From: a virus
Taxonomy: Duplodnaviria; Caudoviricetes
Virus record (IMG/VR): IMGVR_UViG_3300044846_001238
Location: 1 to 55,311 of that record
Reading direction: 5' to 3' (one strand)
DNA length: 55,311 nt
Made by a program: the position numbers and the translations under genes. This document shows, one piece after another, positions 21,913 through 49,100 of this stretch (position 1 is the first letter of the stretch; each line of letters opens with the position of its first letter). The notes under the pieces were generated by a model, which saw only the letters and a list, made by a program, of their open reading frames with translations, had not been told where the DNA came from and did not search any database.

Positions 21913-24900
21913 CTATTCCGAGTTTCTTACGTTTATTCTATTTTTTATTTCATCTACTAGGGCCTCGTCCATAAATACTCTATCGGAGTACCCTAGTTGG
22001 CTCAGTACAGGCTGTAAGACCAGCCCAGCGTATGATTCAGCAAAATACTCAGACAAGCTGGATAAAGCATAACCATCTAGCATTTCTTTAGCTCTGTTTT
22101 GCATACCAGACTTGATAAGATTTTCAAGAACTACAGAGAGTCTTTCTCCATTTTCAGAGAACGCGTTATCTAGTAAGTGGCCATACTCATGGGCAAGGAC
22201 ATAGGTGAGCTTGTCTTCTTCGCTAACTCTATCTCTTACATTTTTAAATGCCAATTTGTAAACCTGATTTATGTCTAAATCTATTTGATCTTGGTCAGGA
22301 GAGAACATGCCAGCAGCTTTTTTCATTATATAAGATAGATCTTTTAGGTGAATATCCATAGCACCGCCACCAATAAAGTACCCGCTATCTAAAATACGTT
22401 TGTGAGCGGCTGTAGCCCTTAAAATGTCCGCGTCTGAAGCATTTTTATTGGAGAAAAGACCATCCTCTAAATGACGCTTAATAGTGGTGCCAGTCTCAGC
22501 GTGCTCGTAAATGTCAGCTTTACCGTGAGCCACAATCAGTGAAACAAGAAGTTTCTGCTCTGAGTGCAGATTTTCAACTTTTTCAGACATAATAGCATTT
22601 AGATTTTGCTTAAAGCTTTCCTCTTCTCCGTAACCAAACTGAGAGAAGAAGTAGTCAGACAAGTCTCTAGTTCCCCAGTCTGAAGGTAAGTTAGGGATTG
22701 GCTTTGCTCTGTGCTCTAAGATTTTTTTAGCTGTTTTTACATCGGCTTTTGTAACATTTTTAAATAGAATTTTATCTGTGGAGCCGACTTTTTTGTCTAC
22801 AGTAGGGCCTTCAGGCGCTTTTGCAGCATCTGCCTCAGCTTTTAAGCTTTCCTGAGTAATTTTTACTAAGTTTTCATAGTATCGCTCGTTATCTTCATCC
22901 ACTAGGAAATCCTTGTAGTCGAGCTTTCTAGTTAAGAAAAGACCATTTTTAGAAGTTAGACGACTCAAAGCCACGTACAGTTGACCAGCAGCAAATGCCT
23001 TGCCATCGGTTCCATCAGCGTTTTGTAGATCTACAATAGCTCTTTCTATAGACAGACCCTGAGATTTGTGGATAGTCATTGCATACGCAGGCAGCATAGG
23101 TATTTGAGTATATTCAGCCAAAACTCCAATACCGCTCTTTTCTACAACCTTACCGGTAAGTTCGTCTATTTGTGTATAGCCTTCTGCGCCTTTAGCCGTA
23201 GACTTACCGTAACCAACCTTAACTCTATTTTTTGTACCGTCTTCTGAAACTATTTCAACAATCGGTAGACCATCGTCTTCGTCAAAATCAACTACAGTAC
23301 CTTGCGTACCATTAGTCCAGCGGTTTGTTTTTCCAGCAAAACCTGCTTCTCTTCTCAAATCTGCATTGTCATTAAGAACAAATATTACTTTTTCACCAAC
23401 GTAATAGGTAATTTTTTCAGGCACGTGTAGATTATCCTCTGTGAATGCAGACTTACCTTCTCCTGTAAATGTGCCTTCAAACTCTATCCCCAGAGCACCA
23501 GATTGCTGAAGTTTTCTAACTTCTACTTCATTAATTGATCGAGCTCTTTCGTTAGTTAGAACTAGACGAATAATTCCTCTATCCAAAATTTCTTTAGGAA
23601 CTTCAACATTTGATTCATTGAAGTACGCTAGTTCGCTCGCAGTTACTTGGGCTTTAGGAATTTTTTGAAGAGCTTCAGCATATGGTTTATCTTTTTCTTG
23701 ACGTCTGTTTTTTGTCAACATGTAGGCTAGAGGATTAGACACTCCAAGAACGTTAGATTTATACCATCTGTAGCCGCCATATTCTGACAGCATATAGTTG
23801 TGCTTATCTCTATCAAATTTAGAAGCCTTGATACGTGCTAACTTTTTATTTTCGGTCTCTTGTTGGTTTTTATCAGCAAAGCTAAGATCGTCTATTTCCT
23901 TCAAATCAGCTTCAAGTTTAGCCTGCTTATTTGGAGACCAAGCTTCCACCGGAGGCAGCTGATTGTCATCTCCAAATGCTACTACTTTTACTCCACCAAA
24001 AGGCTTTTGGTTGTTTCTAGCAACCCTAAGAGATAAATCTATAAGCTCCATAGTATTAGCGTCTACCATTGAAATTTCATCGATTGTAAGGATATCTGCG
24101 TCTCTAAAAAGTCTAAGTCTCTTTGTATCTCTTCTCAACTCTCTAATGAAAAAATCTAAGGTAGAAATTTGTTGGCCAGGATTTTCTGGATCTTCTTGAG
24201 TAAACCCCTCAGCCACAATTACGTTAGGATTTATTCGGAAAACTGAGTGAATAGTGGCACTTTTTCCCTCTCCAACATTGTGAGCAGCTACTCCTGTAGA
24301 TGCTACAGAAATAATATTTTTTCTAGGTTCTAGCTCAAATATCAATCTCCTAAGAACGGTTGACTTACCTGTACCAGCACCTCCAGTTATTAGCAGTAGA
24401 GATCCTGGAAGTAGTCCTGTATCTATAAAGCTAATTAAGTCTCTAGTTTCTTCATCGTCATCAATGATTTCAGTTTGTTCGCCGTACGGGCTACCGTCTA
24501 AGTTAGAATTAGGAGTGTAGTTTTCTAGTTTATCCTTAGTTTCTTGCTTCAGTCCCTGAGGCACATTAATTCCAGAAATTGGTTCATTGTTTTCTATACG
24601 CTTCTGAAGTCTTTTTGCCCTAAGAATTTCTAGATAGTCAGAAGCTGTTCCAGCTGTAGCCATTGCCAGTGAATTTAAAATTATGTCTCTTTCTTCATCT
24701 GAAATGTAAGAGTTGTTGTAGCCGCTAATCTCGCTCAAAATATCGATAATTTCACGTACTTCTTCTATTGAAGGTTTACTAATAGGGTTCTGGCTGTCTG
24801 GTATAGGAGTAGGCCCATTTACTTTTCTATCTACGCTAGGAACGCCATTTCGGTTTTTATTTTCCTCATACAACTGACGGAAAGACATCCTGCCCTTAAC

Positions 24901-27900
24901 TATTGGACGTTCAGCAGGAGGCGGAGTAGCCGGGGCGGCCGGAGTCGCAGGTCTAGCTGGAGTGACTGGAGTGGTGGTAGCTGGAGCAGAGTCGGTTGAT
25001 TCTGGAGCAGGACCTAGTTGCGCTCTTACATTCTTAGTTAGAACCATTTTTTTAAGTTTGCCAGAATCTTCTAATATACTTCTTCTTCTCTGGCTAAGTT
25101 TTAGTAGGCTCTTGTACATATCTTCAATACCAGAATTAGTTTGGAATTTACCATCAACAGCAGTAGACATTGAAGTATAGAATTCTGTACTCAAAAAACC
25201 TTTGCTATACAAAGAGTTTAGCAGGAGTGTTATTTTATCAACTGTACTAGGATTCGGCTTCATATCGTTTGAAAGGTAGGCTGGCTCTGAACCAATAGTT
25301 TCTCTTTGGTGTTGAATAGGCACTAAATCTGTTACAGGGACTTCGTAGAAGTCGTAGGATTTATTGCCATCCTTGTCAATATTGGTCAACACTGCAAGCT
25401 CTACTACACCAGGAGATATAAATTTACTGATACGCCCCTTTTTACCACCCTTAGTCCAAACAAAGAACATAGATTCTGCAACAATAAAGGACTGTCCTCC
25501 AGATTTAACAAAAGATTCAGTAACATCTTCTAGGTCCTCGATAGACCTTAGCTCGGCTTCATACTGTCTTAGATCGTTGTATGGATCCTCATCATTTATC
25601 GATATGCTACCGCTAGTTAGATATATTTTACCGGAGGCGTCAAAATTAAATCTTCCGTCAATAAGCTGCGTTTCTCTCACGGCGTCCATGTCTGGGTCGT
25701 CGGCTATGCCAGCAAAACGTACTACAATAACTTTTCCTGTAGGAGTTCCGTCTTTTTCTTGATACTCATCTAGCACTTGGTAAATCTGACCAGTAACACT
25801 GTCTTTAACCAGTCTACCCATAAGTTTAGAGATTTCATCCATGTCAGGAGAAAGTCCTTCAACGCCAGACTTTAGAACAACTCTATCGCGTAGAGGGTCT
25901 ACAATAGGGGCGTCTTCTAGTCTAGTAACCAAGTCATCATTGTTAAACACAAAATAAGGGTTGACGTGCATTGGCCACTCTTTAGAGCTGAATGGAACGT
26001 TTGACCGTGACCACTCCTTACCCACTACCTTTGGAGATAGGTATTCGCTTGATTCAAACTCACCAGTTATTACTCTGGTCGGGATGTGAGTCAACCCTAT
26101 ACGCTTCGCTGCTTCAACGTGGTGGTTGCCGTCGGCTACAACAGACTGTCCAGTTTTTGGATTATAGTAAACAACAACAGGATCAGAGAATCCCTTATTG
26201 GCGTTGATTTTTTCAATAAGTTCTTGAACTCTATCTTCGTTAACTTCATTACCAGCAATCGAGCTTAAAGTTTCAACTGATACAGCACCAACTACGCTAT
26301 TGTTTGGACCAAGACCTCCGCCAGTAGATGAAGAGTAGTCCTTTGATCCATTAAATACAGGGTTATTTAGGTACTCAGAGGCAACCTGAGCAATCAGGTC
26401 TTCTTCTATAGAGTCTCTGTTGTCAGGGTTAAAGTTTATTCTAGTTCGCTCTCCAAAACTTTGAGATGTCTGTCCAGCTAAAAGGGCGGGGTCTGCTATA
26501 GGGCTTACGTTAGACGGGTTTAAGCCGCTTTCAGAGTTAGTAAACGCAGGGAGCCCTAGGTGGTTTTTCGGGTTCTGATCTACTGAACGTGCCCATGCAT
26601 CTTCTTGAACAGTCTGCTCAGTACCAAAACGTAAATACTTAGTGCTATTCTGCTTAGCAAACGCCAGCATAGCTGTAGCAAGGCCTCTACGACGGTAAGC
26701 ACCGTCAACTTTAGTACCTTGGATTTCAAGTTCTCCGCGATCTAAAGTTCCACCCGCTATGTGGTTTCTAATCTTTAATTGACCAGCTGAATTCTTGATC
26801 AGGTCATTTAGAGTAGAGTCAAAGCCGACAAAGTCACCTAAAGTTTGGTTTGGCTTAGATACAAAGACATAAGCTGATTCTGAAACATCGTCAGCAGGAT
26901 TTGACGGCTCGCTAGAAACATATGCAATTTGGTAAGTATTTCCAGACGCATCCGTGTAGGAACCAACCACAAAATTGTTGTTAAACTTTGAATCACTAGA
27001 AGCGTATCTTAGTGGTACGAACGGCTTATCAGTCTGCCATCTACGGAAAGACCCTGGCTCGGTTGAGGTAACAATGCTGTCGAAAATAGTGTCTACAGTT
27101 TGACGAGGATTGTTTTTAGGGTAAGAGAAGAACTTAGCGTTGTATAGGTCATTTACAGTGGACGCGTAGGCAGCGTATCTGTAGAAGTTTTCTGATGAAG
27201 GGTTTTTAAGATACCTAGCTTTAGTTCCTTCAGCTAAGGTATAAGCCATGAATAGGACTTCATCGAAATCTGCATCTACTGGAAGTCCATAAGGATCTAA
27301 GCCATTAGAGTAGAATGCTGACCTACGACCATAAGTGTAAAGATCTGAATTAGCATCACGACTCTTCGCAGCCCTAGGGAATCTAGGAGAAGGAGATTCC
27401 ATCTTATCGACGCTAGCTAGGTCGCTTCCAGTCTTGTCGGTCTTAAGCATAGGGCTTAGTGTGGTGACTAGAGGGTCTAGGTATTGTAGGAATCTCTTGA
27501 TTTCTGGGTGGCCATCGGTTGTCTGACCATTGCGCATAAGTAGGTAGCCAGCTCTTACAAACTCAGCGAAACTCTCTTTAATGCTTTCATTACCGTACAC
27601 GCTAACAGGGTGTTTATCATCACTACTGTATAGAGGGAACTTGGACTCAAACTCTTTAAATCTCTCGTCATGCTTACCCTTGCCATTTATATCTTGACCC
27701 AAGAAAACCTTAGCTAGTCCGTGGCCCAAGTACTCGTGGATTAAAGTATTTAATATACCTTTTTCTGGAATAGGTTTTTTAAAGTTATTTCTAGGGTTTT
27801 CTTCGTGCTTAGCGGTAGTGTTTAAGACTATGTGCATTTGAGTCTTGCTTTGGTTTAGTACGTTAAAACCTTCATACTTGTCGTTTAAAAATTCACCAGC

Positions 27901-30900
27901 CATGGTAAAAGTGTTACTTTCAGCGAGAGTAACAATAACAGGCATACCACCCATGTCATTAAATCTATTTAGCTCTTTTAGCTCATTAACGATGCTTGAA
28001 AGAATTTCTGGCGTAACCGACCCATCTTTAGTTCTAATGTGGATGTTAGTTTCCGGTACTTCAAATACCCTGTATGTACGGCTATCTTTCCTTTGAGCCT
28101 CGATTATTGGATCAAGTCTGTTTCTAACTTGAGCCAGAACAAGAGCTTGCTGCTCTGAGCTAAGGTTTGCAAAGTCTTCCTCACTTACACCAGCAACAGA
28201 AGAATATCTTGCAGCCACTTTATCGTCAGATAGGTTTGGAAGATAGCCAGCAGATTCATCTGTTTCTCTTAACCAAGCGCCCCAAGTGCCGTTGTTTGCA
28301 TTAGTAGCATTTTCAAACTGCTTAAGCTCTTCTTCTGTTTTTTCAATCAAGTCTGGAATTTCTTGATTGCCAACCTTAGCAACGATTCTTCTAGGCTGTA
28401 TGCCACCTTCTCCAAAGAAAGGACCCTTTTTATCTAGTCTTAGCGGATCGATTCGTCCGTCTTCTTTGGCTTTTTCGATAAAGTTTTTAAAGTCTTGTGA
28501 CGCAGGTTTAGTATCAGTAAGAATGCTGTAGCCCAAGTCTGCCATATGCTCAGCAAAGTTTTCTGACATATTTTCTTCGGCATATAGTGTTAACTCAGAA
28601 TTTTTAAATTCTTCGATAAAGTCTTTTCTAGCTTGGCCGCCTAAAGCTACTTCGTCATACACGTGACCGTACTCGTGAGCAAGAGTAAATACAGCGTCAT
28701 CGATAGTGCCTTCAACACCTTGTCTAGGATCTTTCCCTGTTCTACCGATAGTTGATGAAGAAATACCTATGTGTGCTAGTTTATCTGTAACTACAGCGGC
28801 ACCAACAATAGTACCCTGATTCAAAAGTTCGAGTTGCTCTGGAGAGTAGATACTTACTCTAAGCTCTCTACCATCTAATGGAAGCTCTTTTTGTAGTTTC
28901 ACTGCAGCACGTAAAAGACCCGGAGCTTTTAGAGTCTCATCAGCTGAGTAAGTTAAACTAACGTTACCCTCTCTAATAGTTTTTGTTTTACCACGCTTTT
29001 TAAGACTCTGACTCCACGCGTAGTATAGGTCTCTTTCTCTACTACGAATTGCAGCTATCTTAGGGTCATTAGATAGTATGAACTCATAGCTTTCTTTAAC
29101 GCTTGGGATAAGTCCACGATCTACTAAATAGGTTCTAAATCCCCTATCTTTTTCGATGTCACTAAAACTCTTACGATTTCTTATGTGATCGTTGAAGTAC
29201 TCGTTTACTTTTTTTAGCTCTTCAAAGTAGTTCGGCTCGCCTTTTAACTTTTCTAGTTTATTAGACATGATTCTTGCTTTAGTCTTAGATACTCCATAAT
29301 GCACCATAAGGTCGTACATGTCGGTTTTAGAAGTTAGAATGTTGATTAAATCATCGGTGTCTTTTTCAGTAGTTACTGGGTTACCAGATTCTAAAATTTG
29401 AATTGGTTCGCCTGCTTCAGAAAGTTTTTGAAGCTCGTTGATGTTGTCAAGTAGCTCACGAATTCTAGCTCTTTCTTCTGGAAGATAGTCAGACAAATCA
29501 ACAGAAAGTCGGTCAGAAGGTAGCTGTTCTGGTACCACTGTAGTTGGAGGTGGCGTTGGGGTAGGGGTTACGGCCGGAGGCTGGTCTCCAGGTTCTTCGG
29601 CAGCTGGAGTAGCAGCTTGCCCTGGCTGCTCATCGGAGTCGTTTATTGCAACTTCTGAAGGTTTTTCTTCTTCGTAAACTGCAACTAGAGCATTTAGTTT
29701 TACAGTTAGGGTTTCAGAAGAGCCATCTTCATAATCTACAGAAAGTTTTACAAACCCTGCATTTTTTCTGTCTATAGATTTAATAATTCCATAAACGTCT
29801 GAGTCTTTAGCTCTGATTCTGTCGCCAATTGATAAGTCTTTAGCTCTCTTACTTACTTCAAACTCTCTAAGTCCGCCATTCTGAGGCTCCCCGTTTGGAA
29901 CGGTGTTTGAAGATCTAGCAGGTACAAACGTTGCCTTAGATTTTTCTAGAGCCTTTTTGATGTCAGGGTCTTTTCCAGAACGAGCATCGCTCAAAATACT
30001 TGCAATATACTCTTCAGCTTGACCTCTAGTCATGTTTTGGACTGGAGCAATGATTTCTTTAATTTTTTCTTCTGGAACTTCAAGTTTTCTTAGGTCAGGA
30101 GCGAAACCTTCAGGCTTGTATCCAGGGTTAGTTTTAGGGTTTAAGCTCTTTTGCTTGTCTGTAGCAGGAGTGGCAGATCCGATTGCCTTGAGATAAGAAA
30201 TTAGGTCTTTATCTGCTTGCTGCGCAATCTTATCAAAATCTAGGAACCTGTGCCCAAGAGCATTTGTAGATTCTTTTTCTGGGTTTTTGATTAGCCAATC
30301 TAGAATATTGTTTAGAATTCTAGATGCATCGTAAGCATCTGCGTCAGCTCGGTGCCAACCAGTCGGCTCTAGGCCAAAGAATTTCAAAACATCTTCTAGT
30401 TTTGCGCTAGCTCTAAAGTGAGCAGGGTTGTTAGGGTCAACATCTTCGGACTTCATTCCGTCTTTTTGACGCTTAGGTGCGTCTAACTCTACTGGCTTGC
30501 CCTTACTATCGTCTGCATTATATTTAGGTAGGGCGGTGTTGACAAAGTCTAGAGTGTCAATAGCACCAAGAACATCTAGAGATAGGCCGTTACGGTCTAA
30601 GGCTTCTTCAAGAACGCTAATGTCAAAGTTTGCATTGTGGGCAAGAAGAATGGCATCCGCGCCTATAAATTTAATAAACTCTTCTAGAACTTCTTTTTCG
30701 CTCTTTTGCTGGTCAAGCCACTCTTTGTCAATCTTTACAAACTCGCCGGTAGGGTTGCCGTTTTCGTCTAATACTGGACGCTCTAGATTCTTTGCTGACC
30801 ACTCACTCATCACCACGCCATCTTCTTGACGAATAAACTGATTAAAGAATATTTGCTCCCCGTTAGCGCCTTTCTTAGATGCACCAAGCTGGACAATTCT

Positions 30901-33900
30901 GTTTCCAGGTTTAAGTTGCCCGTCATAGCTTGACATACCAGTAGATTCAATATCGAAAGGAGTAACGTTAGAGTTGTCTAAAAAGTCTTGAATACCCTGA
31001 ACCCCACCGGTTTTATATGCCTGAGCGATGCGAGCTTGAAGAGCTGCGCCTCTAAATGCACCGCCCTTAGGGGCATAGGCAGGTCTACCGTCAGCGTTAA
31101 AGTTGTCCATGGTCTGAGGTAGAGACGGGGTGCCGGTTTGTGCGCCTAGGTTGCTAGGCTTAGGGGCGGCTGCAGGCTTTTCCTTTGTAACCTCTTCAGT
31201 TGTAGGCTTTTCTGCGGCTGGCTTTTCTTCTGTAGTAGCTGGAGTAGCTTGCTGCTTCCCTCCAAATCTTCTAATAAACTCATTAAGTATAGAGTCTATT
31301 TCGGATTTGTAGATAAACGGAAGCCAGTCTCCTCCTCTATCGTTTGCATGGCTATCTGCTAACTTAGCAATACGGTCAAACATATTTTTTAGAATTTCGG
31401 CAGTAAGTAAATTATTCTCTGTTACTTTTTTCATATAGTCAAATAAAATAACGTCAATATCTTCTTTAGAGTATTCTTCTCTAGGATTGTTTTTTAAAGC
31501 ATAGTCAATAAGGCCATACAAGTTACCAAAAATAGTCATTGCATCCTGCTCTGCAGGTTTTTCTTCTTCTTCTACAACTGGCTCGGCGGCTGGCTTTTCT
31601 GGCGTAGGCTCGGCGGCTGGCTTTTTGTCTTCGGCTGCAGGCTGCTGAGGTAGAGGGTTGCCGTTGATGTCTTTAGTTGGCTTGTAGGTCTTGATTCTTT
31701 GGACAACCTGAATCGGGGTTACGCCTAGGTCAATGATAGGCGGGGTCATATTAACTCCACGGCTATCGTCTAGGGTCCAACCGTTGTTGATGCGCCAAAT
31801 AGTTTCAGCTAAGTCTAGAGTCCTAACGATTCTTTCGATTTCATCTTTAGTTAGGTCAGGCTTTTCTAGAATGGCAACTAGTGCGTTACGCTGCTCCTGA
31901 GTAACTACCCCTGAAGAGAACTGACGGTTAATGTAGTTTCTTTGGTTTTGCGTTAGGTTAGCTTTAGCTACAGCAGGAGTCGCTGCTTCAATTTTCTTTT
32001 TAAGACTCTCTACAGCCTGCTGAATTGTTTCTTTTTTATTAGTAGAGGTTTTTATGTCGTAATCTATTTCAAGCTTGTAGTCGGCACTAATTACCTTAGC
32101 GGCTACGGCTTTTTGGATAACGTCGTCAAGCTCTGCTTGAAGTTTTGGAAGTTCGTATTCTTCAAAAAGAGTTTCGATTATGTCATTAGCTTGCTCTTTT
32201 GTAGTGTTGTTATTAAAAGCTTTTAAGAAGTATGCAATCGAGGTTTCATCCATGTCGGGTTTGTATTTACCCATAAGACGGGCATACTCTTTGAATTGAT
32301 CGTCAGTAGCCAGATTCTCTTCTGGAATACGAGCATCTCTTCTTTCTTTGATAAGATTTTTTAGACTGTCAGTGCCTTGGCTCTTATCTTCAAAAAGCTC
32401 GCCTGGGTCTTTAAAGCCTTGAGGAATAGTTACGGTAGAGATTTCGTAGTTATATCCAGAATCTTTTAGAGTCTCGTACACGCCTTTAGTGGCTTTTTTA
32501 CCTGGCTCATCGGAGTCAAGGCTAAGAATGATTTCCTTTAAATCGCCGCCAAAAGTATCTTGAAGTAGTTCAATTTGCTTAGGAGAAATACTAACACCGC
32601 TGATTGCAACAACGTTGTTTATTCCTGCCTCTCTATAGGCAAGGACGTCGGCTTGGCCCTCAACAAGAATAAGTTGACCGGTCTCTTTTACAGAATCAAG
32701 AGTGTTCTCTAGGTTGTATAAAACTTCGCTTTTATTAAATACAGATTTATTTGTCTCGTTAGGCCCAGCCGTAAGTATGTATTTAATAGCCCCGCTTTTG
32801 CCACTAATGTCTCTTCCGTTAAACCCTACAACTCTACCCTTCGAGTCCTTAAACGGGAATAGAACTCGATTACTAAAGCTATCTAATAGCCTGTCTTCAA
32901 ATCTGTTTACAAGACCTGTAGCAAGTATTTCGTCTACAGTAAATCCTAGGGAAGTTAGGTGCGCAGATAAAGATAATTTAGAATCTCCAGCAAAAACAAT
33001 GCCGAGCTCTTCTACTGACTTACGGCTATAGCCCCTACCTTCTAGGTATTTAATTCCTTTATTATCCTTAGACGCCATCTGCTTGGCATAGAACTCAAAG
33101 GCTGCTTGCATGATGTCATAGGTTTTTTGTCTGTCTTCTTCGACAACCTCTTCTTCAACTTCTTCTTCAACTTCTTCTTCAACTTCTTCTTCAGCGCTAT
33201 CACCGGCGACATACTTCTTAATAGCAGCTAGTACTTCACTTCTAAGAACATTTATGTCTTGGCCAGACTGAGCAAAAACCTCAATTTCTCCTGAGTCAGG
33301 ATCTAGAATTACATTTTCTTCAGGATAGATATCAAAAAGGTGGTCTGCAAGGTCTTCATAGCCCTCAGGGATGTTTCCAACTATAGAAATCTTTCCATTG
33401 TTTTGGACAGAGTAAGTGACTCTAGGAGAGTCTGATAAAATTCCAGTGGTGTTTACCTCGCCAGTGATAGGTTCATCTTTAGAAGTCTGAGCCGTCTGTA
33501 CCGCAGGTGCTTCGTCAAATTCTTTTTGTATAGCGTTAATTAAGTTCTCTACTAGAACCTGTACTGACTCTGACTCTCCTGGATTAAGCTCTATTACCCA
33601 GTTTTTTCTTTTCTCGTCTTCGCTAAGGAAGTCTTGTCTACCTTGGCCATCCGCTGATTTTTTAGTTCCGTCACCGTTGTAAAAGAAAGGAGGGGTAAAC
33701 TTACCAAGTGTGCTTGGCATTTTAGCTACTGCATTTTGTAGAGTTATGTGGGTAGGTGAGTTGGTGGCTATACTCGGGAATCCGAAAATCATCAGTACCC
33801 TACCGTTACCTAGAACTTCATAAGATACGCGGCGTTTTCCGCCTTTTGTTTTTATAAAAGTACCCTTAGAGCCCGGAAGACCCTTAGCACCAGGAACTGC

Positions 33901-36900
33901 AACAGTTGGCTCCGCTGCGGCTTTGGCCTTAGACTTGCTTCCCATTTTTGCAGCTGTTTTTACAACGTCTTCGTACTTATAGTCGACTTCTGGTATAAAT
34001 TCTTTACCCTTAGAGTCTTTTAGTACTAGTTGAACAGTGCCGTCTTCGTTTTCGTCGGCAGCAACAAATCTATAGGTTTTGCCCTCAATAACAACAATGT
34101 CATTGACTTTTAGGTCTTCAACAGCTTTTTGACCGTCTGTGGTAGTAGTAGCTGGCTCTTCTTCATCTTCTTCAGACTCACCTTGATTAGGTTTGCCCTC
34201 TACATTAGGTTTTCTGTAAACATTTTCTAATTTGTAAGGATCTTTTTCATTAGCTTTTTTAGATTTTTGTACTAAAACTCGATATAGCTCGTCTGGATTT
34301 AAATTTAAAGCTACTACTTTTCCGTCAGGGGCTTGAAAAGTTGCACGTAGGACACGTTTGTTGTTCTTATCTCTATCCGCCTTAGTAGCCACCGAGATAA
34401 CTATAAATTCTGCACCATCGTCTCTTCTAACTACGTCACCGTATTTTAGAGATACCGGGCTACGCTTAGCTCCGTTAGCTAAAGCATCTTCGTATTTTTG
34501 TTTTTCTAAATCTGTTTTTGTTGGTTTAGGGGCGACACCCGCTGTGTCTTCAGTACCTGTAGATATAAAATTAACTTTTTCTTCGGCAGTAAACTCTAGT
34601 GGGTCTTCGTCTTCTTTAGTAGTGACTCGAGTTATCGGCAAATAAGTTTCTACTGTTATAAGACCATAATCTTCGTCTTCAAATTGAAGATCACCGTCTT
34701 CATTCTCGTCAAGAGAGTTTTTTAAGTCTTCATCATACTCATAGAATATCTCTACTTCTTTACCAAGTTCAGTAGTTGCCCAGACTTTTAAAGTTTTTTC
34801 TACTTCAGTTACATTTTTTGTCTCTCCATCGACAATAATCTGGTCTCCGGGGGTAAGTTCCGAGGCAAGCTTAGTCTTTGGCTTTGCTGCCTTTGATGGC
34901 TTTGCATCAGCTTGCTTTTCTTCTATTCTGTATCCAATAATGTCAGCAACTTTTCTAACCGCGTCTGTAAAAGATACGTTTTCAATGTCACGGATAAATT
35001 GGAATACATCTCCACCTTTACCGTCAACAAAACATTTGTAAAGACCATTTTTAGAATCTATAGTTAGAGAAGGAGATGTGTCATCGTGGAATGGACAGAT
35101 TGCTTTAAACTTACCGTTACCGGCTGGCGTAACTTTTGTATATCTTCCGATTACCTCAGCAATATCCGCTCTGGCTTTAATAGCGGCAACATCTTCTTTA
35201 GAGATGCCTTTTTCTTTTTTAGCGTCAACAATAGGACCAGAATCTTCTTGCTGCTGACCGCGAGGTACAAAGAATGTTTTGCCCATAAGCTCTTGCATAA
35301 CAGAGAGAACTTTGATGGCTCTATCGTATTCGTCACCGGCTTTTGGATTATTAAAGTATTTATCTACCCCTCCGCCTATTGTGTGTAACCACTGAGCCTG
35401 AAGACCCCACTTAATTTTTCCATCTTTATCTTTAAATTCTTTAAAGAGTGGTTCGTAATTATGAGAACGTGGTGTTTCTCTGCCCCAGTCTCTTTCCCAA
35501 GCTCCCTCGCCAAAGAGTTCGTCATATTTGCCAGGTATAGCACCCTCTTGAAGACCGTTGGCTTCGTAAAATGCTGCCCAATTATTTCCTTCACCAAACG
35601 GTGAGCTATCTAATGGATAGTAGTCAAATTGACCTAGTGGCTTATTTTGTCTAAACGGGCTTGCTCCTGTACTTCTATCATACTTACCGTCCGCTGATTT
35701 TAAGTTTGCTAAATCAAACCACGAGGCATTGTCTGGGTTTGGAATCTCTAAATCACCGAGTCTTTTAACTCTTCCAGGGATAGCAGTGACTTTATCACTA
35801 ATTACAACGCCAATTTCATCAGCAATTCGACTGAATCCAAGTAGACCAGTTACTTCATCTGGACGTGCTTTAATTTCATATCTTCCAATATTAGGGCCGC
35901 CATCTTCGATTCCTCGACCAACGTTGTAGTCAAAAGCCATGTATCTATCTAGACTTGCGTATCCAGCTGCTGCCTTGGCTTCATCATTTGTTCTTCTAAT
36001 ATTGTTTCTATAGAACGATATAAGCCCGCCGGGCTTTACCCCAAGGAATTTTTCAGCATAAAGAGTATTTACTCTTTTTATTAAATTCTCTATTTTTTCT
36101 GGGTCGTTCCATTGGGTGCCTATGTCAGTTGCATACCCCCTGATATGGTCCCAAAACTGTTCTGGAGTTTCTATATCTTGCCTCGGTTTAAAATTACCGT
36201 TTTCGTCTGTATAATAGTAGACGCCTTTTAGTAGTTCAGGATTTTCTCTTTTTATTTGCTCAAAGAAACTCTTGTATTGTTTGCTAACGGTATCTTCAAT
36301 ATCTTTAGCACTTCTAATTATAGGGAATCTACCCTGAGCCTCAAGATCTTTTGCAATAGCAGAGCGGATAGTTTGAAGTGCTTCATCACCGCTGATTTCG
36401 TCTTTAAGCTCCTGAGCAGGTTCAGCGGCTGGCTCTTCCTGTACTGCCTCGGAGGTAGGGGCGGCTTCTTCTTGACTTTCGGTTGGAGTTGCGGCCTGAG
36501 AGTCTCCGGCCTTAAAACTTTCAAGTGCCTCTTTACGCTGAGCGGCGTTTTCTTCTGGGGTTAGTCTGTTGTCTTGAGCATAAGCTCTGGATACAATACC
36601 ATCAATGCCCTCATTGGTGACGTCAGGCCCCTCAGGGCGATTTGAGTCGACAGGGGTGTTCCAGCCGTCGTCTTCGACTGGTTCAGCTGTTTTATAGTAC
36701 TCTTCTAATACGGCTTGGTACTGCCTTTGAGCCTCTTCAATTTGTTTGTACGCACTGGAGTTTTCAATTGCCTTTAAGACTTCTTCTTTAGTGCCTCCGC
36801 TAAGAATAAGGTCTTTTATAGAGCCGTCTTCATCGTATACCGAAATGGAGTCTAAAACTCCTGAAAGCCTGTCGGATATAGGTTGATGGCCAGGGTTTTC

Positions 36901-39512: not shown

Positions 39513-39514
39513 GT

Positions 39515-40064: not shown

Positions 40065-40089
40065 TTTCGTCCTTACTATTGATTAATCT

Positions 40090-40098
40090 AGTATAGCA
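40090..40098 (-). promoter_or_regulatory. Extended -10 promoter TGCTATACT for the two small genes
   Basis: TGnTAnnnT consensus in the 43-bp gap after the 3075-aa gene. Confidence 0.55.
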
Positions 40099-40107
40099 AA
40101 AAATAGA

Positions 40108-43100
40108 CTACTCAATACCAAGTCGGTTGTCAAGTTCAGCTAAAGCTAGCCTAATCTTAGGGGTAGGATCGGGGTCTAAAGCTCCAGAAGAACCTAGGCT
40201 ACTCATGCCTAAGTAGGCAAATAGTCTGTTTCTATCTTCAGGAGATAGCTCGGTTAGTCCTGTTCCAGACTCTAGCATAGCTAAGATTTGTAGAAGACCT
40301 AATCTGCTAGTTTCGTCCCTTTGACGCTTAGCGTTAGGGTTAGCTTGCAAATCAGCAATTTCTCTATTAGTCATCTCGATTTCGCCGTTAACATCAGCAT
40401 CAGTAGCAAACCTAAACGGAACGATTCTCTGCATGTAAGGAGTTTTTAAAGACAGCTTAAGTGACTTTATGTAAGAAAGCTTTCTTTCCATAAGATCTCT
40501 ATTGAACTTAGAATAGTAGTCTTCTCCAGATGGGCTGACTTTTTTGTCTACAACAGGACCATCGGCGTCCTGTTCATTAGACTTATTAAAGTCTTCGGCA
40601 GTGAGACCCATCTTTAATCCCATTTCTATTAGCTCTTCTTCTGTGGCGTCAGGATTTTCGTCTCTTAGAATAAGCATAGATGCATTTTTTAGAGCTTCTG
40701 GCGTTATGTAATTAGCTAGTCCGCCAAAGTCTATTCTACGCTTGGCTCTGGTTCCGGAAACGTACCAGCCGTTAACCTCCTGCCTATTTATGGCCTTGTT
40801 AATCTTTTCTTGCTTTTCTTTTGCAAGACGTTCTTCTTGTTGTTCGTCGGTTTCACCTTCTAGCTTTTCTGGCTTAGCTTTAGCAACACCCTCTTCTTCT
40901 GGTTCGTATGTAGGATCCCAGTCTTTCCAAAGTCTAACGTTCTCTTGCTCTAGACCCTTAGCTGTGTGTGAAGTAAGGAACTGAACTGCAGCGTCTGATC
41001 CGCTAAGGGCGTTGTATACCGCAAGTATTTCATTCTTTAGGGATACCTCATCGGTTGAGTCAATAGCTTTAATCCACTCAGCCGCACGGTACATTTTACC
41101 AGTTTCCTGTCTGTCTGGAACCATTTCGGTGCTTCTTTCAAAACCTAGGCTTTCTAGAAGAGGAGCGTTTTCAAACAAAGGAGACTTTTTGCCTTCTCTT
41201 CTGTAAGATCCAGGTTTCTTAGCTCCACCCGGCAGGATTACCAAATTACCGTCTCTAACAGAATAAGCAATTTCATTACCAAAGAATCCGTTTAGACCTA
41301 CTTCTTCTGGCATCTTATAGTCATTGTTTACAATCCTATAATCATTTATTCTTCTAGATAGTTCGATAAGAGCAGGTCCAGGAAGTAACCTTCTACCTTT
41401 AGTTCCTTTTTCTGGGTCGGCCGGTCCTCTTAGTTTACTCATCAAACTAAAAATAACCCTAGTGTCTTCGTCAGCAGTGCCAGCTTTAATTGCTGCTTCG
41501 ATGCTTCCCCATGTAGCTCCAATCAAATCCGCTGGCCTTACAACAGGTGGTTTTGCATTTTCAATTCTAGACCTAGTAGCTTCAACTTCACCCGCTAATT
41601 TCATATAATCTTCAATCTGCGTAAGAGTTAGACTTCTGTCTTCTCTCTTAGATAGAGATTCAATTGCATTTTTAAGCTCTAACTTAGCTTCTCTAATTTC
41701 ACTAGCTGTAGTCATAGGAGTGTAGATTGGAGCTCTTGGATTTGTTCTGTCAACTCTAACTAAAATAGGCTCTTTAGTTGTTGGGTCTATACCTCTATAG
41801 GCAACTTTAAGTTCTTCATATGCGGCTTTTAGTTTAGGAGCTTCTACAAGAAGAGCAGCTGCAGCTTCATTGAGTTTTCGTAACTTAGCGTTGTTTAGGT
41901 CGTCATAGTATAGATATTTCATAGTGTCTACGTGAGCAGACACTCTTTGCTTAAGTCCTGCAGTGATAGCAAAATACTTACCGTCATAAAAACTTTCGGT
42001 TTCTAGATCAAGAGTCGCGTCTAAGATACCAGCGTTAGTTCTAGTAATTAAGAACATGTCATCTAGCAGCATGGTGTTAGGCTCAAAAATCTCTCCAGAC
42101 TCGTTAACCGCGCTTTGAAGGAATATTAGTGAACCTAGTGCTTTTAGTATGTCATTAGCTGGCCCTAAAATTTCTGGTGAAGACCTTCTGTTGACTGTCA
42201 ATGGGAACTCAGCGTCAGCTACTAACTCATTAAGAGCGTTAGCGGTACCACTAAATCCAAAAATACTTTGATTCGTATCTCCTACAGTAATAAATTGGAT
42301 ACCGTTACCTTTTTGACGCTTCATAATGTCAATAAACACAGGGTTTAGGTCCTGAGCCTCATCCAACATAATAACGTTAGGTATTTTAGGTAGACCTAGT
42401 TCACTGGTGACGCCGCCTCTCGGGCCAACTGTAGCTGAAGATAGGTCTATATTACCTAGAGACCAGTTCTTTACCATGTGTTGCTCTCTAACAACTAACT
42501 GACGTTTGTTTGGGTCGTGCGGAGATAGAATGTCTTGCCAAAAATCTTGTGCAATTAGTGCAAGTTGCTCTATAAATACTCCTTCATTTCTAGAAGCATC
42601 TTCTGGAATGTCAACTATATATTCCTCACTGTAACTGAAATCATCGCCTTCAATTTCTACAGGAGTAGTTCCCTCGTTAAAAATCTCGACTATTCTTCCG
42701 TCGACATCTTTTCTTACATAGCGCTTTCCGATAAATACTCCGTCTTCGCCAACAAGCTCGCCTACTTTAAGAGAGAGTGGGTCAAGATCATTTATGTCCT
42801 TATCCTTGCCGACAGTTAAGAACTTACGCGCTCCTGGCGACCAGCTTGGGTTAAGAGAAAGCATATTTAAAAAGTCTTTAAAATGCTTTCTAGAAATTTC
42901 TGTATCTGCAGAGTTAACCCAGTTTTCTAGACCATCATATGCGAGTCTTGCTAAATCTACACCGCGCAGGTAAACACCGTATTGCTCTTGTATAGCGTCG
43001 CCATACTGATCTTCGAGGAAGAAGCTTTCCGCAATGTCATACGCTGAGTAGCGTATGGTCATACCTTCACTATCGCCAAGCTGTTTAGGAATAGCATCGT

Positions 43101-46100
43101 ATTTTCTTCTCAGTTCTTGGTTTGGCTTAACTCCCATAGCAACAGAGTGTAGAGTTCTAGCTGCAATGTTTTTAACGCCATCTAGTCTAGCTTCAGCTTC
43201 TTCTTGGTTTTCCTTACCGAAAACCATGTACAGTAGGTTCTTGTCTGGGTTCATCGCCGCATAGACATATGCTAGAACCTCTAGCATGGTAGTTTTACCT
43301 GTACCCGCAAGCGCGTTTACAATTAAATCCGGTCTATTGTCAGATAAAGCTGCCTTAAGAATATTTTCAAGCTCACTGGTTAGTTGAACTTTAGGCATAT
43401 ACCTATTAACTAGAGATAAATTAAGAACAGTTTTGTCATATTTTTCAGTTACTAGTTTAGGAGTTTTTTTCTTAGCATCTACAATAGGGCCTGCAGAGCT
43501 AGAAGCACTCTGCTCAGCGGTAGGTAGAGCCTCAGGAGTGTCTTTGTTAGCCTTTACTATGTTTTGCTGTTCTCTAGAGTTAACAAGCATTGAAATCAGG
43601 TTGTTTAGGGCAACACGAGGATATGAGTCACTTTTAATGCTGCTTTTTACGGCATTAGCAAAATCCCTAGACAAAGCCTTAGAAGCCAACAACTCGTCTA
43701 CCAAATCTAAAGCGGTGTCTTTGTTTTCTTTTTCAGAAACCGGCACTCCCGCATACGGAAGAACGGAAATTTCATTTACTGGAACCTTGTAAATCTTTTC
43801 GCCATTTTTAATAATGCCTACTCCGATACCATTAAACCCAGAGAAAGTTCCTGCCTCGTTGTCGCCTAGAGAAGAGTGAGTTACAGTCATTCCCAAATCT
43901 AAAGCCATACCGTTTTTAGAGACAATAGCTTCGGTAGCGTTGTATAGGATTGAAGGCTTAACTTTTTGAAGAGTAGTTCTACCAGAAGATAGATACTCAG
44001 CCGCAGGGAACTCAACTAGAACTAAACCTTCTCCAGTAGATCCGTATGATCTACCAATCTGATTTGTTAAAACGTTTAGAACGTAGCTACCTGCCCCGAG
44101 CTCAGAAACTACTCTGCTGGCTGGCATTGTTGAAGTTCTGTCTTCAGGTCTTTCAACCACTCTTCTGCTAGCTATTTCTTCTAGTGAACTGAGAATTTGA
44201 TTAGACGCTTCAGCAGAGTTTGAGTCTGCAGATTGTCTATTTTTATCCAAGATGTTGTTGACAAACATAGCATAGTCAAATAGTTTTCTACCAAGCAGGT
44301 AGTCAGCAACTTGATTCTTATATTCTTCGCTTGCTGTTGCGTACTCAGAGTCTGACCAGCCATTCTTAGAACCCTCAAAGTCAAAAGTTCTGCCCTTATC
44401 GGATTTTCCTTCAGCAGCAAAATCAAGTATTTTACCTAGGATTTCCAAAGTAGATACAACGTCAGCATCCGCTTCGTGACGTCCGTTGTTAGATAGACCG
44501 AAGTATGTCACCAAAGCTTCTAGGCTGTCTGACGGTACTTGGACACCATATTTACCTTGGCTAGGGAAATCGCTCAACCTAAATGGTGCGTTAGGGGTGC
44601 TTGCTGACCATCTAGGCATGACGTACTTAGATAGACCGAAAGTGTCAATAAAGCCACCAAACTTGTACTGAGGCAGTCCTGACTCTAGTAGGGTTCTGTT
44701 TAGTACTTCCATATCAAACATAAATCCATTGTGACCAACTAGCACGGCACCCTCAGGAACCATGTCTAAAAAGTCTTGCATAGCATTTAGTTTGCTCTTT
44801 TGATCCTGCAAAAACTCTTTAGTTACTTTTTTGCCAGTGCCGTCACCAATAGTGTTCATAGTGAACTGGCTAAGCTGGGATTCTGGATTTATGTATGAGT
44901 TGTATTGCTCTTGAATTGCAAAGTTGAATGCTTTTGCGATAGCAAGCTGAATAGGGTCATTTTTGATTTCAGGGGCGTCAACGTCGAAAATACCTGTTGT
45001 TTCAAAGTCAAAAACGTATAGAACTAGCTTAGAGATAAAATCTCTAACCTGCTCCCAATCAGACATGTTTCTAAGTGGCTCCAGTGCTTCACCTGCGAAA
45101 GCCGGTGGAGTAAATCTTTTCATGTTTGGCTTAGGAGAGTTGATGTCAATTTTTCTATCAACAATCGGACTGTCTTCCATGTCCTGGCCAGCAGTATATG
45201 CCCCGACCAAGTCAGAGACTACAATAGAAGCCGCGTCTTCTAGGTTACGTAGAGTTTTTTCTTTAGGGTTTCTTATTTTACCGTAGCTGTAACTAGCTGT
45301 TGGTATGTTAGCTAAGGCAGTACCAATAAGTTTTACTCTGCGATCAAACTCAGCTGGAGACTGTTGCATAATATTTTTACGTCTACCATCTAGAGCACCT
45401 CTAAGTGATGAAAGTTCCTCAATCGCTTGTTGAACAAAGCGCTTACCATCAGAGTTTAGTTCCCTATTAGATTTCTTTAACATCTCTCTTAGCTGCTTTA
45501 CAACAGCATCGATGTCTATTCTAGTAGCTTTAGCAGCCTCTTGTCTGGCTAACTTAGCTCTTAGTGCAGCCTGCTGCTCTTCATTAGTTCCTAGGTTGTC
45601 ATCTAAGTTTTCCGCAGCACTAGATAGTGCCTCAATAATAGGTGTCCACCAAGGATCTAGTCCGTGTCTTTCAACCAACGTCGGTAGGAACTTGTTACTG
45701 GATTTATTTCTAAGTTTTTGAAGATCTTCTGCAGGGAAGTCGGCTCCAACGTTAGCATCTAGCGGAGCATAGGAGTCAGGTACAATAAAGTTACTCGGTC
45801 TTTTTAAATCAGTAAGATCTAATCCATTACGCATCGCGTACTCAAAAACTAATAGATCGAAATCTTCTTCGTATCTTCTAGTTACATCTATGAGTTTTGC
45901 AAACCACCTTTTATCTTTTGTTTTGTAGTTTTGCAGTAGGAAGTCGGAAAGAGCTTTTGGAAATGCTCCCTTAGCTAAGCTACGCTCAACGGATGCTAAC
46001 TGCTTAGCTGAAGGTCCGCCTTCTTTTTCTGGAATAGCCTGAGTAAATACTTTTGGAACAAACTTTTCTAGTTTTTCTTGTCCCCAAAGTGCATTAAAGT

Positions 46101-49100
46101 CATACCACTCATTAATTGGCATTTTTCGGTGGTTTTTCATAAAATATCTAAGTGCGGCTGGACTTATATCATAGTTATCAATAACTTGCTTAGCCTTTAC
46201 CATTATTGATTTAGTAGGTGCTTTAGTACCGACTAAGTCTGTACCAAGAGGGGCATATTCAGACTCAGGAATGTCATCTAGCCCTCTTCCTTCAGCAATT
46301 TCAATAGCGGTAATGTCAATAGTCTCGGTAATGTCAGTAGTCTCAGCACCGTCGACAGCTTTTGGCTTTGCTCTGTATAGCTTATACTGAGCAATCTTTT
46401 CATTCATCTTGCTCTGAGAATATTTGTGCATTCCTGCTAAGTCGTTTAGACTTTCTTGTATTTTGTCTTCAGGGACGTTTCGGTCTCTAATTAGAGTTTT
46501 TAAAAACTTTCTTTGATCCGGGCTTCCTGTTACACCTTCTTCAGCAGTACGCTGGATAGCAATTGCTGACGCACGATTAAGTGTGTCTTGCACTTCCTTA
46601 AAACCATAGTTGTCTAGGTTATTAGCTATTTCATATAGTCTGTCAACAAGGAATGCGTCGTCAACAATAGCGTAAAAAGCTAGAAATTTTAATCTGTTCT
46701 TAATTTTATCAGAAAGAGGGTTGGAAACATCCTTAGGGTCTTTCTTACCTTCTGTTATTTTAGGGTCTGGACCGTCTCCGGTAAGAATAGGGGTTTCGGT
46801 TGCAGGTGTCTCTGAAACACTGGCCTTACCACTCTTTAGTTCTGCGTCTCGTCTTAGATTTTCTTCAGTCGGCAGAACGCCTGAACCGCGATATACAGAA
46901 ACAGGCTCGTCTTTCTTGACTCGTATAAACCCACCTGCTACACCCTCGCTATCACCCTTGAAGTAGATACCTAGGCTGTCTGGTTTATCAGGGTTTTCTT
47001 CTATTCTTAAGATTTCCTGAGGGACTCCGTTTTCACCAACTATAGCGTCAGAGACGATTACTTCACTACCTAGAACCTTTTTTACGTCTTTAAAAGTTAG
47101 TCCGCGTTTTACGTTACTTCCTCGGTAGTTGTTAAGGACAGCATTGATTTGCGCTAAAAATGAACTTCCTTCATATGTAGGAGCAAACCTAAACTGATCT
47201 ATTTTAGCTTGTAAGTTTGCGTATTCCGCTGGCGGTACCTTATAGTTCGATAGATTCGCAATTGCTCTACGAATTTTTTCTCTCTGCTGAGGGTAAATTA
47301 GAGATCCCTTTGGGTTCACATCTGCAAGACCACCGTGATATAGGTTGTAGTACAGAGTTGCTAAATCTTTTACAGTAAACTCTTGAGGATAGTCATGCAT
47401 CTCATCCCATAGATCGACTGCCTCGGGCAAGCCTTTTCTTCTTAGTAAGTCTTTATCAAGTGACATGTAAAATCCAGAGTTTTGTATTTCAGATAGGATT
47501 ACACCCTCTCCTACACCCTCTACACCAAGCTTAGCCTCGTATCCTCCAGCATTGAGAACATTTTTAGTTTGGGCGGCCTTTTCAATCTTTGCAGCGATAT
47601 CTTCGTTCAAAGGCTCCAAAAACTTTTTGCGTTCAGGTAGCAGGGAATCCTTGTCTACAGGTGCTTTATCAGCAACATCGCCGGCTGCCATTCTGTCAAC
47701 GATAGGTAGGTCTTCATCTTCTTCGTAGCTACGAGTAAATCTTTCAACACTATCCCAACTAAAGACTGAAGCAATGTAGTGTCCAGTTCTGTTGGAGTAG
47801 ATGTTCATTGTTCCAGGAGTAATTAGCGGGGCATCTCCAACATATCTTTCACCAGTTTCAATATCCAGTGTGTCAACAGATTCTGTTCCAACAGATAGGT
47901 CACCATACTCGGCTACATATAGGCCGTCGACTGAGAGGAACGTGTTAGGCTGCTCTGTCTGTCTCCAAGTTCTAGGTAGAGATTGGATAGGGTTAAATCC
48001 AGGCAGTTCTGTGTCGTCTTCTGTTTCGTCTTCTTCTAGCACTTCTTCTTGCACTTCAGGAAGTTCGGCAACTACCTGTGGTTGAGCAACTTCTTCAATT
48101 GGCTCGTTTTCAGCGTCTGGATAGTTAGTGTCTTCTGCAGTAGTCATCTGCTGAACTCCGGACCAGTCCTGAGCGTATCCAACTACTTCTTCTTGACCAC
48201 GCTTTGTAGAAATAAGCTCATAAACAGGCTTATCTCCCTCTAGAGTGTCAGTACCCTTAGTGTTTAGTACTGTTGCTCCAAATTTATCCCGAGCCTCGGC
48301 TACGCGGTTTTCTAGAGCTTCAGTTACTCCGTTATACATAGCCAAACGGTAACCGTCTCCAGTTGCATAGTTTTGTGCTGGCTTTACGTTAGTGCTTAGC
48401 AGAGCTGCTCCAGCGGCTGATTCGGTTGTGTACCAGCTTGTAGGGAGGTCCTTACGAATCATGTCTGCAATGTCAATAAAGTTTACGCCTAGTCCAGGCC
48501 CTACTGGAGAAGACTTTTCGATAGCTTCGGCTGGAAGAATGGCCTTGAAGAACTTAGTCATGTCTGACGGAACGGTATAGATGCCAGGAGTGATTCCAGG
48601 AACATCGGTGATTTCTAAATCGATACCCTTAGGGTCGTTCTCAGGAATACCAGCAATCTTACCAACCACAGAGATAATGTTTCCCATAGGCATTTTGACG
48701 TATAGACGAGCTCCGCCACCCATCTCGGCGAACTGACCTTCTTCGTCACGACGCTGCCCTTCGGCACGCATCTTTCTGTGCCAGAAGCTGTTCTTACCGG
48801 CGTACGGATCACCAAAAGCAAGAATTGGTCTAATACGTAGGTCGCTAGGGATTTGGTCTCTTACAGAGCTTAGACGGATCATGTTGTAGTGGAAATCTAG
48901 GCTGTTAGGGTTGCTACCATAAACAGCAGCAACAATAGCTCTGGCGTTCTCGTCTGTGATTCTAGGGTCTGAGGCAATCCATTCAGCCCGTAGCTGACGT
49001 AGCTCTAGTGAGGAGAACTCGTGGGCTGCAGTTGAGTTAGGGTGGTTTACAGGAAGTAGGTCTGTGTGCTTAGCCACTGTTTCTGAGATATTTCCCTCAG

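Follow-up and report, generated by a model that had tools for sequence, protein, structure and literature searches.

The polyproteins of RNA viruses, among them those processed by NIa-Pro of potyviruses and 3C of picornaviruses, carry border motifs that are uniform within a genome, differ between related viruses and co-evolve with the encoded protease. Prohead-type proteases, which include T4 gp21 and herpesvirus assemblin, provide a second point of comparison. A further member, SPN3US gp245, is reported to cut head and ejection proteins after A-x-E (PMC10052503). The third comparison is with the polyvalent proteins of Iyer, Burroughs, Anand, de Souza and Aravind (2017, J Bacteriol, PMC5512222), giant chains of unrelated enzyme domains encoded beside virion genes, for which that work predicts packaging, injection and release of the domains by zincin-like metallopeptidases; phi24B gp47, a protein with LPD domains, is reported to have been detected in virions by proteomics (bioRxiv 10.64898/2026.04.10.717836). 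The present analysis concerns two giant genes, A and B, in the IMG/VR virus record IMGVR_UViG_3300044846_001238 (an uncultured phage; Duplodnaviria; Caudoviricetes), positions 1 to 55,311 of which were analysed as one 55.3-kb stretch (the window), and a short recurrent motif, P-x-V-D-[RKA]-[KM] (the junction tag), in the proteins that they encode. The tags are read here as sites cut by a fast-evolving endopeptidase of the phage, other than the head protease and most likely an embedded zincin of A, a reading that we hold to be about as probably right as wrong.

With the RNA virus polyproteins, the proteins of this locus share a recurrent short motif at domain borders. They differ in belonging to a DNA phage, in having a metallopeptidase and not a chymotrypsin-like cysteine or serine protease as the candidate enzyme, in probably being virion cargo and not a whole proteome, and in that cleavage is here proposed from sequence. 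As in the prohead-protease systems, proteins packed in the head would be cut at a short consensus, and a head code, [LIVM][TVI]A[ASG], is apparently present here too; unlike in those systems, the tag of the giants is a second code, absent from the head proteins and variable between lineages. The likeness to the polyvalent proteins lies in the multi-enzyme chains (primase, helicases, ParB-like domain, candidate zincin) encoded beside virion genes, and the two giants do have a late, virion-type placement, between the gene for the portal and those for a MuF-like protease carrier and the major capsid protein (MCP). Unlike the polyvalent proteins, they bear an explicit, conserved and lineage-private tag; the available portion of PMC5512222 gives no cleavage motif, and no published junction or cleavage motif in polyvalent phage proteins was found in the literature at the level of listings and abstracts. 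The cargo is also almost a replication kit, comprising a primase, two DnaQ-like exonucleases, a UvrD-like helicase and Pif1.

All nine copies of the tag that the initial annotation had listed were found, residue for residue and at the same positions, and the domain placements it had named agree with Pfam. Homologues were collected by a word-index search, which returned 18 for B (83-25% identity) and 16 for A (94-31%); 16 B-type and 17 A-type sequences were aligned, and the presence of a site was scored by a relaxed pattern. Like every long open reading frame (ORF) in the window, the tags are on the minus strand. In B, PIVDRM (B1; 47689..47706, amino acids (aa) 544-549; 13/16 homologues) follows the N-terminal module, PIVDRK (B2; 45151..45168, aa 1390-1395; 13/16) lies 51 aa upstream of the exonuclease domain, PIVDAK (B3; 43471..43488, aa 1950-1955; 15/16) lies about 40 aa upstream of the P-loop region of the helicase, and PVVDKK (B4; 40540..40557, aa 2927-2932; 14/16) stands ahead of the 149-aa C-terminal module. 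In A, PIVDAK (A1; 35218..35235, aa 1413-1418) is 11 aa upstream of the primase zinc ribbon, ASVDKM (A2; 27400..27417, aa 4019-4024; 15/17) is about 100 aa past the second zincin motif, PIVDPL (A3; 25891..25908, aa 4522-4527; 17/17) follows the GNAT/ParB-like module, PSVDRK (A4; 24823..24840, aa 4878-4883; 12/17) is 145 aa upstream of Pif1, and PTVDKK (A5; 22789..22806, aa 5556-5561; 16/17) separates Pif1 from the C-terminal zincin module. All nine sites are thus conserved junction columns in the two alignments (12-17/17 and 13-15/16), and junction positions are conserved down to about 15-30% identity. A1 is the counterpart of a site that directly follows the N-terminal module in most homologues (about aa 243-249) and was moved downstream in the window by an insertion of about 1,150 aa. 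A4 was lost in homologues P0031-34, in which the column reads GVKRD or GVTRD.

Several further observations belong beside these sites. The insertion in A (aa 264-1412; window 35236-38682), between the N-terminal module and the first junction, is shared, among the homologues, by the window sequence and P0021 alone, with part of it in P0026 and P0034; it contains two similar segments (FYRN...AAAGY...DR..A..Y), has no family match and bears no junction tag. A weaker tag, APVDKD (window 47653-47670, B aa 556-561), begins 7 residues past the end of B1; P0003 retains it, P0004 has ARVDKD in its place, and it is perhaps a tandem or a degenerate copy of the site. Three other look-alikes, PEVDRN (aa 630), PEVDYK (aa 1827) and SIDRK (aa 3232), are not kept in homologues and were left out of the site count.

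The pattern P[IVTS]VD[RKA][KM] has seven matches in the 8,927 aa of A and B, and none in the other 12 ORFs of at least 150 aa or in the rest of the six reading frames. The comparison with shuffled sequence that the initial annotation had proposed places this far above chance: residue shuffles give a mean of 0.0095 matches, none of 2000 reaches seven, and the analytic Poisson P is 7.5e-19. When 4-mers are ranked without regard to the motif, PIVD is the second most enriched (5 observed, 0.12 expected; P x 160,000 = 0.03) and the top one that is not of low complexity, PAAE, which ranks above it, being a low-complexity word. A BLOSUM-seeded self-motif search was no more sensitive than its shuffle null (maximum n 3-4) and was left out of the counts. 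Third-position codon identity between copies is only 42-48%; because the copies differ there, the tag is conserved at the protein level, as had been claimed from the differing codons, and a DNA-level repeat was rejected on the same ground. Membership of a repeated domain was rejected as well, the flanks being unrelated (-0.79 BLOSUM per residue downstream of the tags, against a null of -0.86 +/- 0.11).

The surroundings of the tags have the character of linkers. In the 10 residues upstream, aspartate and glutamate make up 28% (16% overall) and hydrophobic residues 12% (30% overall). An AlphaFold2 (AF2) model of B aa 1330-2010, built from 10 sequences, has a mean predicted local distance difference test (pLDDT) score of 72, and in it B2 (construct residues 61-66) falls within a coil of pLDDT <50 (43-70) directly upstream of a domain of pLDDT about 90-96, while B3 (621-626) falls within a stretch of pLDDT <50 (621-640). 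The initial annotation had suggested mapping the sites on predicted disorder, and in the two mapped here the tag is in a low-confidence linker and not buried. By these measures the tags sit in flexible inter-domain linkers.

Although the positions of the sites are conserved across the homologues, their letters are not. The window clade has P-[IV]-V-D-x-K/M; P0005-7 and P0011 have S-[AVP]-V-D-[RK]-M; P0008-10 have x-V-D-[RK]-R; P0012 and P0014 have [IV]-[IV]-D-E-[KM]; P0015 has V-E-E-M-A-T-P; and P0016 and P0017 have [VI]/E-Q-E-M-[AS]. In the graded series of homologues the code changes stepwise, with K, M or R at the last position. Pairs of A and B from one genome were deduced from an equal longest contig (137,331, 27,294, 30,374, 30,293 and 30,000 bases), the identity of the contig itself being presumed, and in all five presumed pairs (5/5) the two giants have the same variant of the code. 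Some relatives have additional modules, and these too are bracketed by the tag: P0015 has five sites, and in P0035 the tag PVVDEK is followed by an extra C-terminal module.

More distant loci were reached through the head-protease domain. IMG/VR searches with a single segment (the B exonuclease fragment; the third zincin of A) returned no relative; the protease domain and the B-type alignment found some. The domain search gave at least 226 relatives, of which 80 loci were kept, and nearly all of these 80 have a long ORF, open at the edge of the locus, upstream of the carrier protein and MCP. Lineage tags were derived from a de novo search for gapped exact 4-mers, a crude procedure, and the lineages are not independent samples. 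They read [IL]D[KR]MA in L004/L096/L098, GFAQxPG in L012/L014 (9 copies in 2,458 aa), MGM[AS][LI]P in L017/L073, LNMA[VI]P in L020/L021, P[SN]QNRE in L038-40, GPSPK[EQ]E in L041/44/47, EQEM[AS] in L086 with L032, VEE[SM][SA] in L087 with L003, PQ[LF]M[AS]F in L089/90/93 and PIxKKAxSE in L085. Actual tags of the various lineages include SAVDRM, VVDRR, AIDEM, VEEMATP, EQEMA, IDKMA, PQLMAF, GFAQxPG and GPSPKEE. The lineage code is the top de novo 4-mer match in many relatives, and many other fragments gave no tag by the same crude search.

These private tags fall on the same junctions. When distant fragments (14-37% identity) are aligned with A, they occupy the junction columns of A, so that the column of A 4522 reads VVEEM, IDKM, IQEM or MFMQY in distant loci and those of A 4019 and 4878 read PSQNRE and GPSPKEE. 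Across 20 loci the codes, as patterns fixed post hoc, give 3-13 matches in the giants, with none elsewhere in the six frames in 17 loci and 1-2 in the other 3. The tag is, by this comparison, uniform within a genome and divergent between lineages. The same conclusion can be drawn from 6-mer BLOSUM scores, which in the B family are 21.5 for different sites within one protein and 14-15 for the same site in proteins of <65% identity, and in the A family 14.5 within a protein and 12.1-12.6 for the same site across proteins. In sequence terms, then, the junction tags evolve in concert, which is expected when all sites answer to one reader.

Two explanations do without cleavage. One is that the tags are by-products without a reader, left by chance, composition, a DNA repeat, gene fusion or internal translation starts, and we regard this as scarcely credible. 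What speaks for it is that the tags of several lineages close with Met and then Ala or Ser (IDKMA, EQEMA, VEEMATP, LNMAVP), which resembles a start. Internal starts were nevertheless rejected, the window tags mostly ending in Lys (6/9, with Leu in 1/9), those of a sister clade in Arg, none of them encoded by start codons, and GFAQ, GPSPKEE and PSQNRE having no Met; chance is excluded by the shuffles, and fusions that arose independently would not leave each genome with a single uniform tag.

The other is that the tags are uncut docking motifs for one fast-evolving phage factor, such as a packaging or ejection chaperone, an anchor inside the capsid or a hub that brings primase, exonucleases and helicases together for replication. 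Enrichment, conserved positions and concerted change would equally be expected of short linear motifs that lie in disordered linkers and evolve along with a binding partner, many of the modules are replication enzymes that could share a hub, and some linkers have no tag. This is nonetheless unlikely in our estimate: tags also precede modules unconnected with replication (the zincin, the GNAT/ParB-like piece, and the ArdC-N/MPTase modules in P0015), the tag-bracketed extra modules of P0015 and P0035 fit the release of cassettes, one anchor per chain would suffice, and there is no known candidate partner. The sorting signal that the initial annotation had offered as an alternative to cleavage is unlikely for a tag repeated 4-5 times within one chain.

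Within the tag, constraint is strongest at the hydrophobic residue, at the D/E/Q and at the closing K/M/R.

One enzyme proposed to cut the junctions is the head-maturation protease, whose domain lies in the 1539-aa carrier protein (17020..21639, minus strand; protease match at about nt 18040-18627). The giants sit in the head module adjoining its gene, SPN3US gp245 sets a precedent (PMC10052503), and a motif of head-protease type occurs near the N-termini of both giants. However, no junction tag occurs in the MCP, portal or carrier of the window or, relaxed patterns included, in the same three proteins of 11 other loci. The protease domain is also 65-98% identical among 16 sequences with 10 codes, with central blocks that are almost letter-for-letter identical, so that a near-invariant core would have to read unrelated codes. 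That the head protease reads the junction tag is therefore very unlikely, and the explanation in which it cuts the junctions is one that we consider highly improbable; the suggestion that the head protease might use the sites, made when they were first noted, is accordingly not borne out.

The head proteins carry a different and constant motif. [LIVM][TVI]A[ASG] occurs 6 times in the window MCP (1.06 expected; 0/300 shuffles), 9 times in the carrier (1.54; 0/300) and 3 times in the portal (0.70; 4/300), and is not enriched in the giants (A 4, 3.61 expected; B 3, 2.43 expected). Over 10 lineages with 9 junction codes the counts are 90 in the carrier (15.5 expected), 47 in the MCP (11.6) and 9 in the giants (14.1). 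At the border of prodomain and shell in the MCP (16093..16188, minus strand) are PVTAAAE (aa 233) and AITAGADIP (aa 261), the latter kept in 10/10 lineages and the former, as PVTA[AS]AE, in 7/10 (IVTASAE in L024). These border motifs are presumed to be head-protease sites, and [LIVM][TVI]A[ASG] is presumably the protease's own cutting code. The head module seems, by this comparison, to have two codes, one constant for head proteins and one variable for the giants. The MCP has, besides, an acidic N-terminal extension of about 230-260 aa (aa 1 to about 260; window 15900-16884) with EEMPEEDMPEEEMPEDMDE repeats, which is probably a scaffold-like prodomain.

The motif near the N-termini of the giants is LTAA in A (39436..39447, aa 9-12, minus strand), where P8, A11 and A12 are nearly invariant, and LTAS in B (49171..49182, aa 52-55, minus strand), where the consensus ALxASA is kept in the family. 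Both may be sites at which a leader is trimmed in the prohead; if so, the giants would already be within the prohead when it matures.

With the head protease set aside, attention turns to the three HExxH-type zincin motifs in A, all on the minus strand. Zincin 1 (HEYGH; 28663..28677, aa 3599-3603) has NFAE downstream and is invariant in 17/17 A homologues. Zincin 2 (27721..27738, aa 3912-3917) reads HEYLGH, a non-canonical HExxxH, with SFAE downstream; its H3912, E3913, Y3914 and H3917 are invariant in 17/17 A homologues, its counterpart in L002/L003 is a canonical HEYAH, and it may be inactive or an unusual metal site. Zincin 3 (HEYGH; 22177..22191, aa 5761-5765) lies within the C-terminal module (aa 5556-5852), followed by EYFAE, in a pattern that we take to resemble that of LF. 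Its Pfam scores all fall below the cut-off (DUF2268 E=0.022, M48 0.099, M90 0.15), and its nearest ESM Atlas clusters are ATLF/M48/M90-like viral proteins (0.94), with ATLF on 12% of members; an AF2 model of zincin 3 and its junction from 7 sequences has a mean pLDDT of 43, too poor for a fold search. A HEYGH-type motif is present in all fully covered near relatives, and HExxH in 8/8 code-bearing lineages whose giants are fully or nearly covered. Neither HExxH nor the tag is found in Pumpernickel gp82 or in the 3289-aa protein of DSL-LC01.

Locus L041 may represent a natural exchange of codes. Its cargo modules are 75-77% identical to those of the PSQNRE phages L038 and L039, and its carrier and MCP are also closest to theirs, yet its code is GPSPKEE, and all four shared junctions have changed from PSQNRE to GPSPKEE. 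The C-terminal zincin module of L041 groups with those of the GPSPKEE loci L044 and L047 (47-50% identity, against 38%; core 58-59%, against 48-49%). On this circumstantial evidence, the embedded HExxH zincins are the best remaining candidate readers of the tag.

A number of points weigh against this reading. The mosaicism of L041 extends to two further genes, the ORF that follows the MCP and the one beyond it likewise grouping with L044/L047, so that the zincin module is not the only part with which the code goes. In a set of 43 distinct C-terminal fragments, a strong motif occurs in 9/24 with HExxH and 2/19 without (Fisher p=0.077, the rows not being phylogenetically independent). No type of zincin is universal among code-bearing lineages, which have ArdC-type HELxHSTGH, HEYGH...FAE or HE[IVF][AW]H, and P0018 combines the GPSPKEE code with a different type of C-terminal zincin. 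Comparison of per-domain identity between the window and near relatives shows the zincin domains to be no more diverged than the cargo domains. The window zincins match no peptidase family at threshold in Pfam, PF18818 included, and in this they are unlike the polyvalent proteins, whose MPTase-PolyVal domain is that family (relatives P0015 and P0018-20 do carry PF18818); sequence searches with a profile of zincin 3 and with zincin 1 gave no meaningful match among PDB chains. Zincin 2 has HExxxH spacing in place of HExxH, and B has no HExxH and would need cutting in trans. There is also no conserved site in aa 1413-4018 of A, about 2,600 aa that include the primase, the exonuclease and two zincins, nor a tag in a confident inter-domain linker of B (aa about 1691-1739; AF2 construct 362-410, low pLDDT). 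Given the long site-free block, the original proposal that the sites release single enzymes is not supported. Finally, the evidence on cleavage, enzyme, bond and timing is all comparative.

Some of these points would be met if the tags are cleavage sites of another enzyme, be it a phage protease encoded beyond the window and its flanks, an unrecognised protease domain in the giants or a protease of the host. The window covers just a portion of a genome whose size is about 130-140 kb (relatives are on contigs of 137,331 and 137,826 bases), about half of each giant is without family assignment in Pfam and PHROGs, and neither a zincin common to all code-bearing lineages nor a statistically strong association of zincin and code is to hand. 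Even so, host proteases are not expected to differ so radically between phages with 65-87% identical head genes, the code goes with the lineage of the phage and, in L041, with one of the giant's own modules, and no other protease family was detected in the window by PHROGs or Pfam. This explanation is, in our judgement, distinctly unlikely.

Cleavage by an embedded zincin of A would proceed as follows. Both giants would be made late, from genes between portal and capsid, and loaded into the prohead via a shared N-terminal module, their leaders perhaps being trimmed at LTAA (A aa 9) and LTAS (B aa 52). The zincin would then cut the nine flexible junctions, either in the head or after ejection into the host, to give about 11 pieces in all. 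From B these would be the N-module, the 846-aa module of unknown function, the DnaQ-like exonuclease, the UvrD-like helicase and the 149-aa tail, and from A the N-module with its insertion, the 2,600-aa block of primase, exonuclease and two zincins, the GNAT/ParB-like piece, a 356-aa unknown piece, Pif1 and a zincin. Of the polyprotein cleavage that had been proposed for the tags, what stands is that they are non-random, linker-placed, positionally conserved and rewritten in concert; the cutting itself we infer.

A bolder proposal, which is tentative and in our view somewhat doubtful, is that each actinophage-like lineage has a private junction code read by an exchangeable zincin within the cargo, so that a virion-packed string of about 9,000 residues, with enzymes of replication and anti-defence, would be cut into about eleven proteins on delivery. 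A swap of the reader would then rewrite all junctions of both giants within a short evolutionary time, as may have happened in L041 relative to L038.

The layout of the locus is that of a siphovirus-type head module (PHROGs, Pfam), in the order small-terminase-like protein, portal (51577-53373, minus strand; PHROGs/Pfam), a 739-aa ferritin-like/DUF5824 protein, B, A, the 1539-aa carrier (MuF-like, head-protease and scaffold-like; PHROGs), MCP and tail genes. B (40108..49335, minus strand; 3075 aa) begins with an N-terminal module and an 846-aa module of unknown function, continues with the DnaQ-like exonuclease and the UvrD-like helicase, and ends in a C-terminal module of 149 aa; Pfam detects RNase_T at aa 1441-1633 and a UvrD-like helicase from about aa 1990, and a fold search with the AF2 model indicates that aa 1400-1690 fold like Pol III epsilon-type exonucleases (target-normalised TM-score 0.74-0.80). 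A (21913..39471, minus strand; 5852 aa) has an N-terminal module, the 1150-aa insertion, a DnaG Zn-ribbon, a primase core/Toprim, an RNase_T exonuclease, a GNAT/ParB-like module and a Pif1 helicase, besides its three zincin motifs. The Pfam matches in A are Zn_ribbon_DnaG (aa 1424-1519), DNAG_N/Toprim, RNase_T and PIF1 (about aa 5023-5192), and the ParB-like nuclease is matched by phrog_26754 (3.6e-6). Both A and B therefore unite many unrelated catalytic and DNA-binding domains in one chain (Pfam, PHROGs).

The N-terminal 543 aa of B match at least 296 protein clusters (50% identity) at E<=1e-3, 231 of them at 1e-10. In all 150 clusters listed the match starts within the first 50 or so residues, and by hand count 117 of these 150 are at least 1,900 aa long, the longest being 7,004 aa. 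The N-terminus of A is weakly similar to this module (23% over 99 aa, E=0.004 in a single comparison). A motif of the type R-D-x-x-G-[RQ]-F occurs in the N-modules of both giants (RRDEEGQFAEMGG in B and LRDQNGDDAGEWIEMG in A) and in the carrier at aa about 1415-1430 (PRDVQGRFRQV; window 17020-17400), and may be a shared head-targeting or binding element. The 739-aa protein (window 49340-51559), between portal and B, has an N-terminal ferritin/Dps-like domain (PF00210, 3.8e-14), a DUF5824 domain and a head-type motif, LLAAG, at aa 201.

Among named phages, the closest are Actinomycetia phage DSL-LC01, which is a metagenome-assembled genome and has an MCP 68.6% identical to that of the window, and large phages of Microbacterium and Arthrobacter. 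A giant gene stands at the same place, in the same gene order, in both DSL-LC01 and Pumpernickel. The phage collection searched yielded no cultured relative with a clear code.

The junction tag turns the processing predicted for polyvalent proteins in 2017 into site-specific tests, in that it names peptide bonds, peptides and module swaps. The findings suggest that some phages carry a pre-made replication kit in the virion, with a primase, two proofreading-type exonucleases and two helicases, and that one head module can hold two proteolytic codes, constant for the head proteins and variable for the cargo. Because the N-module of B marks so many protein clusters, most of those listed being giants, the junction rule could help to annotate many unexplained giant ORFs in viromes. 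If the cleavage reading is true, DNA phages would have a polyprotein strategy of their own, with fast co-evolution of protease and substrate and with cut sites that would be predictable from sequence.

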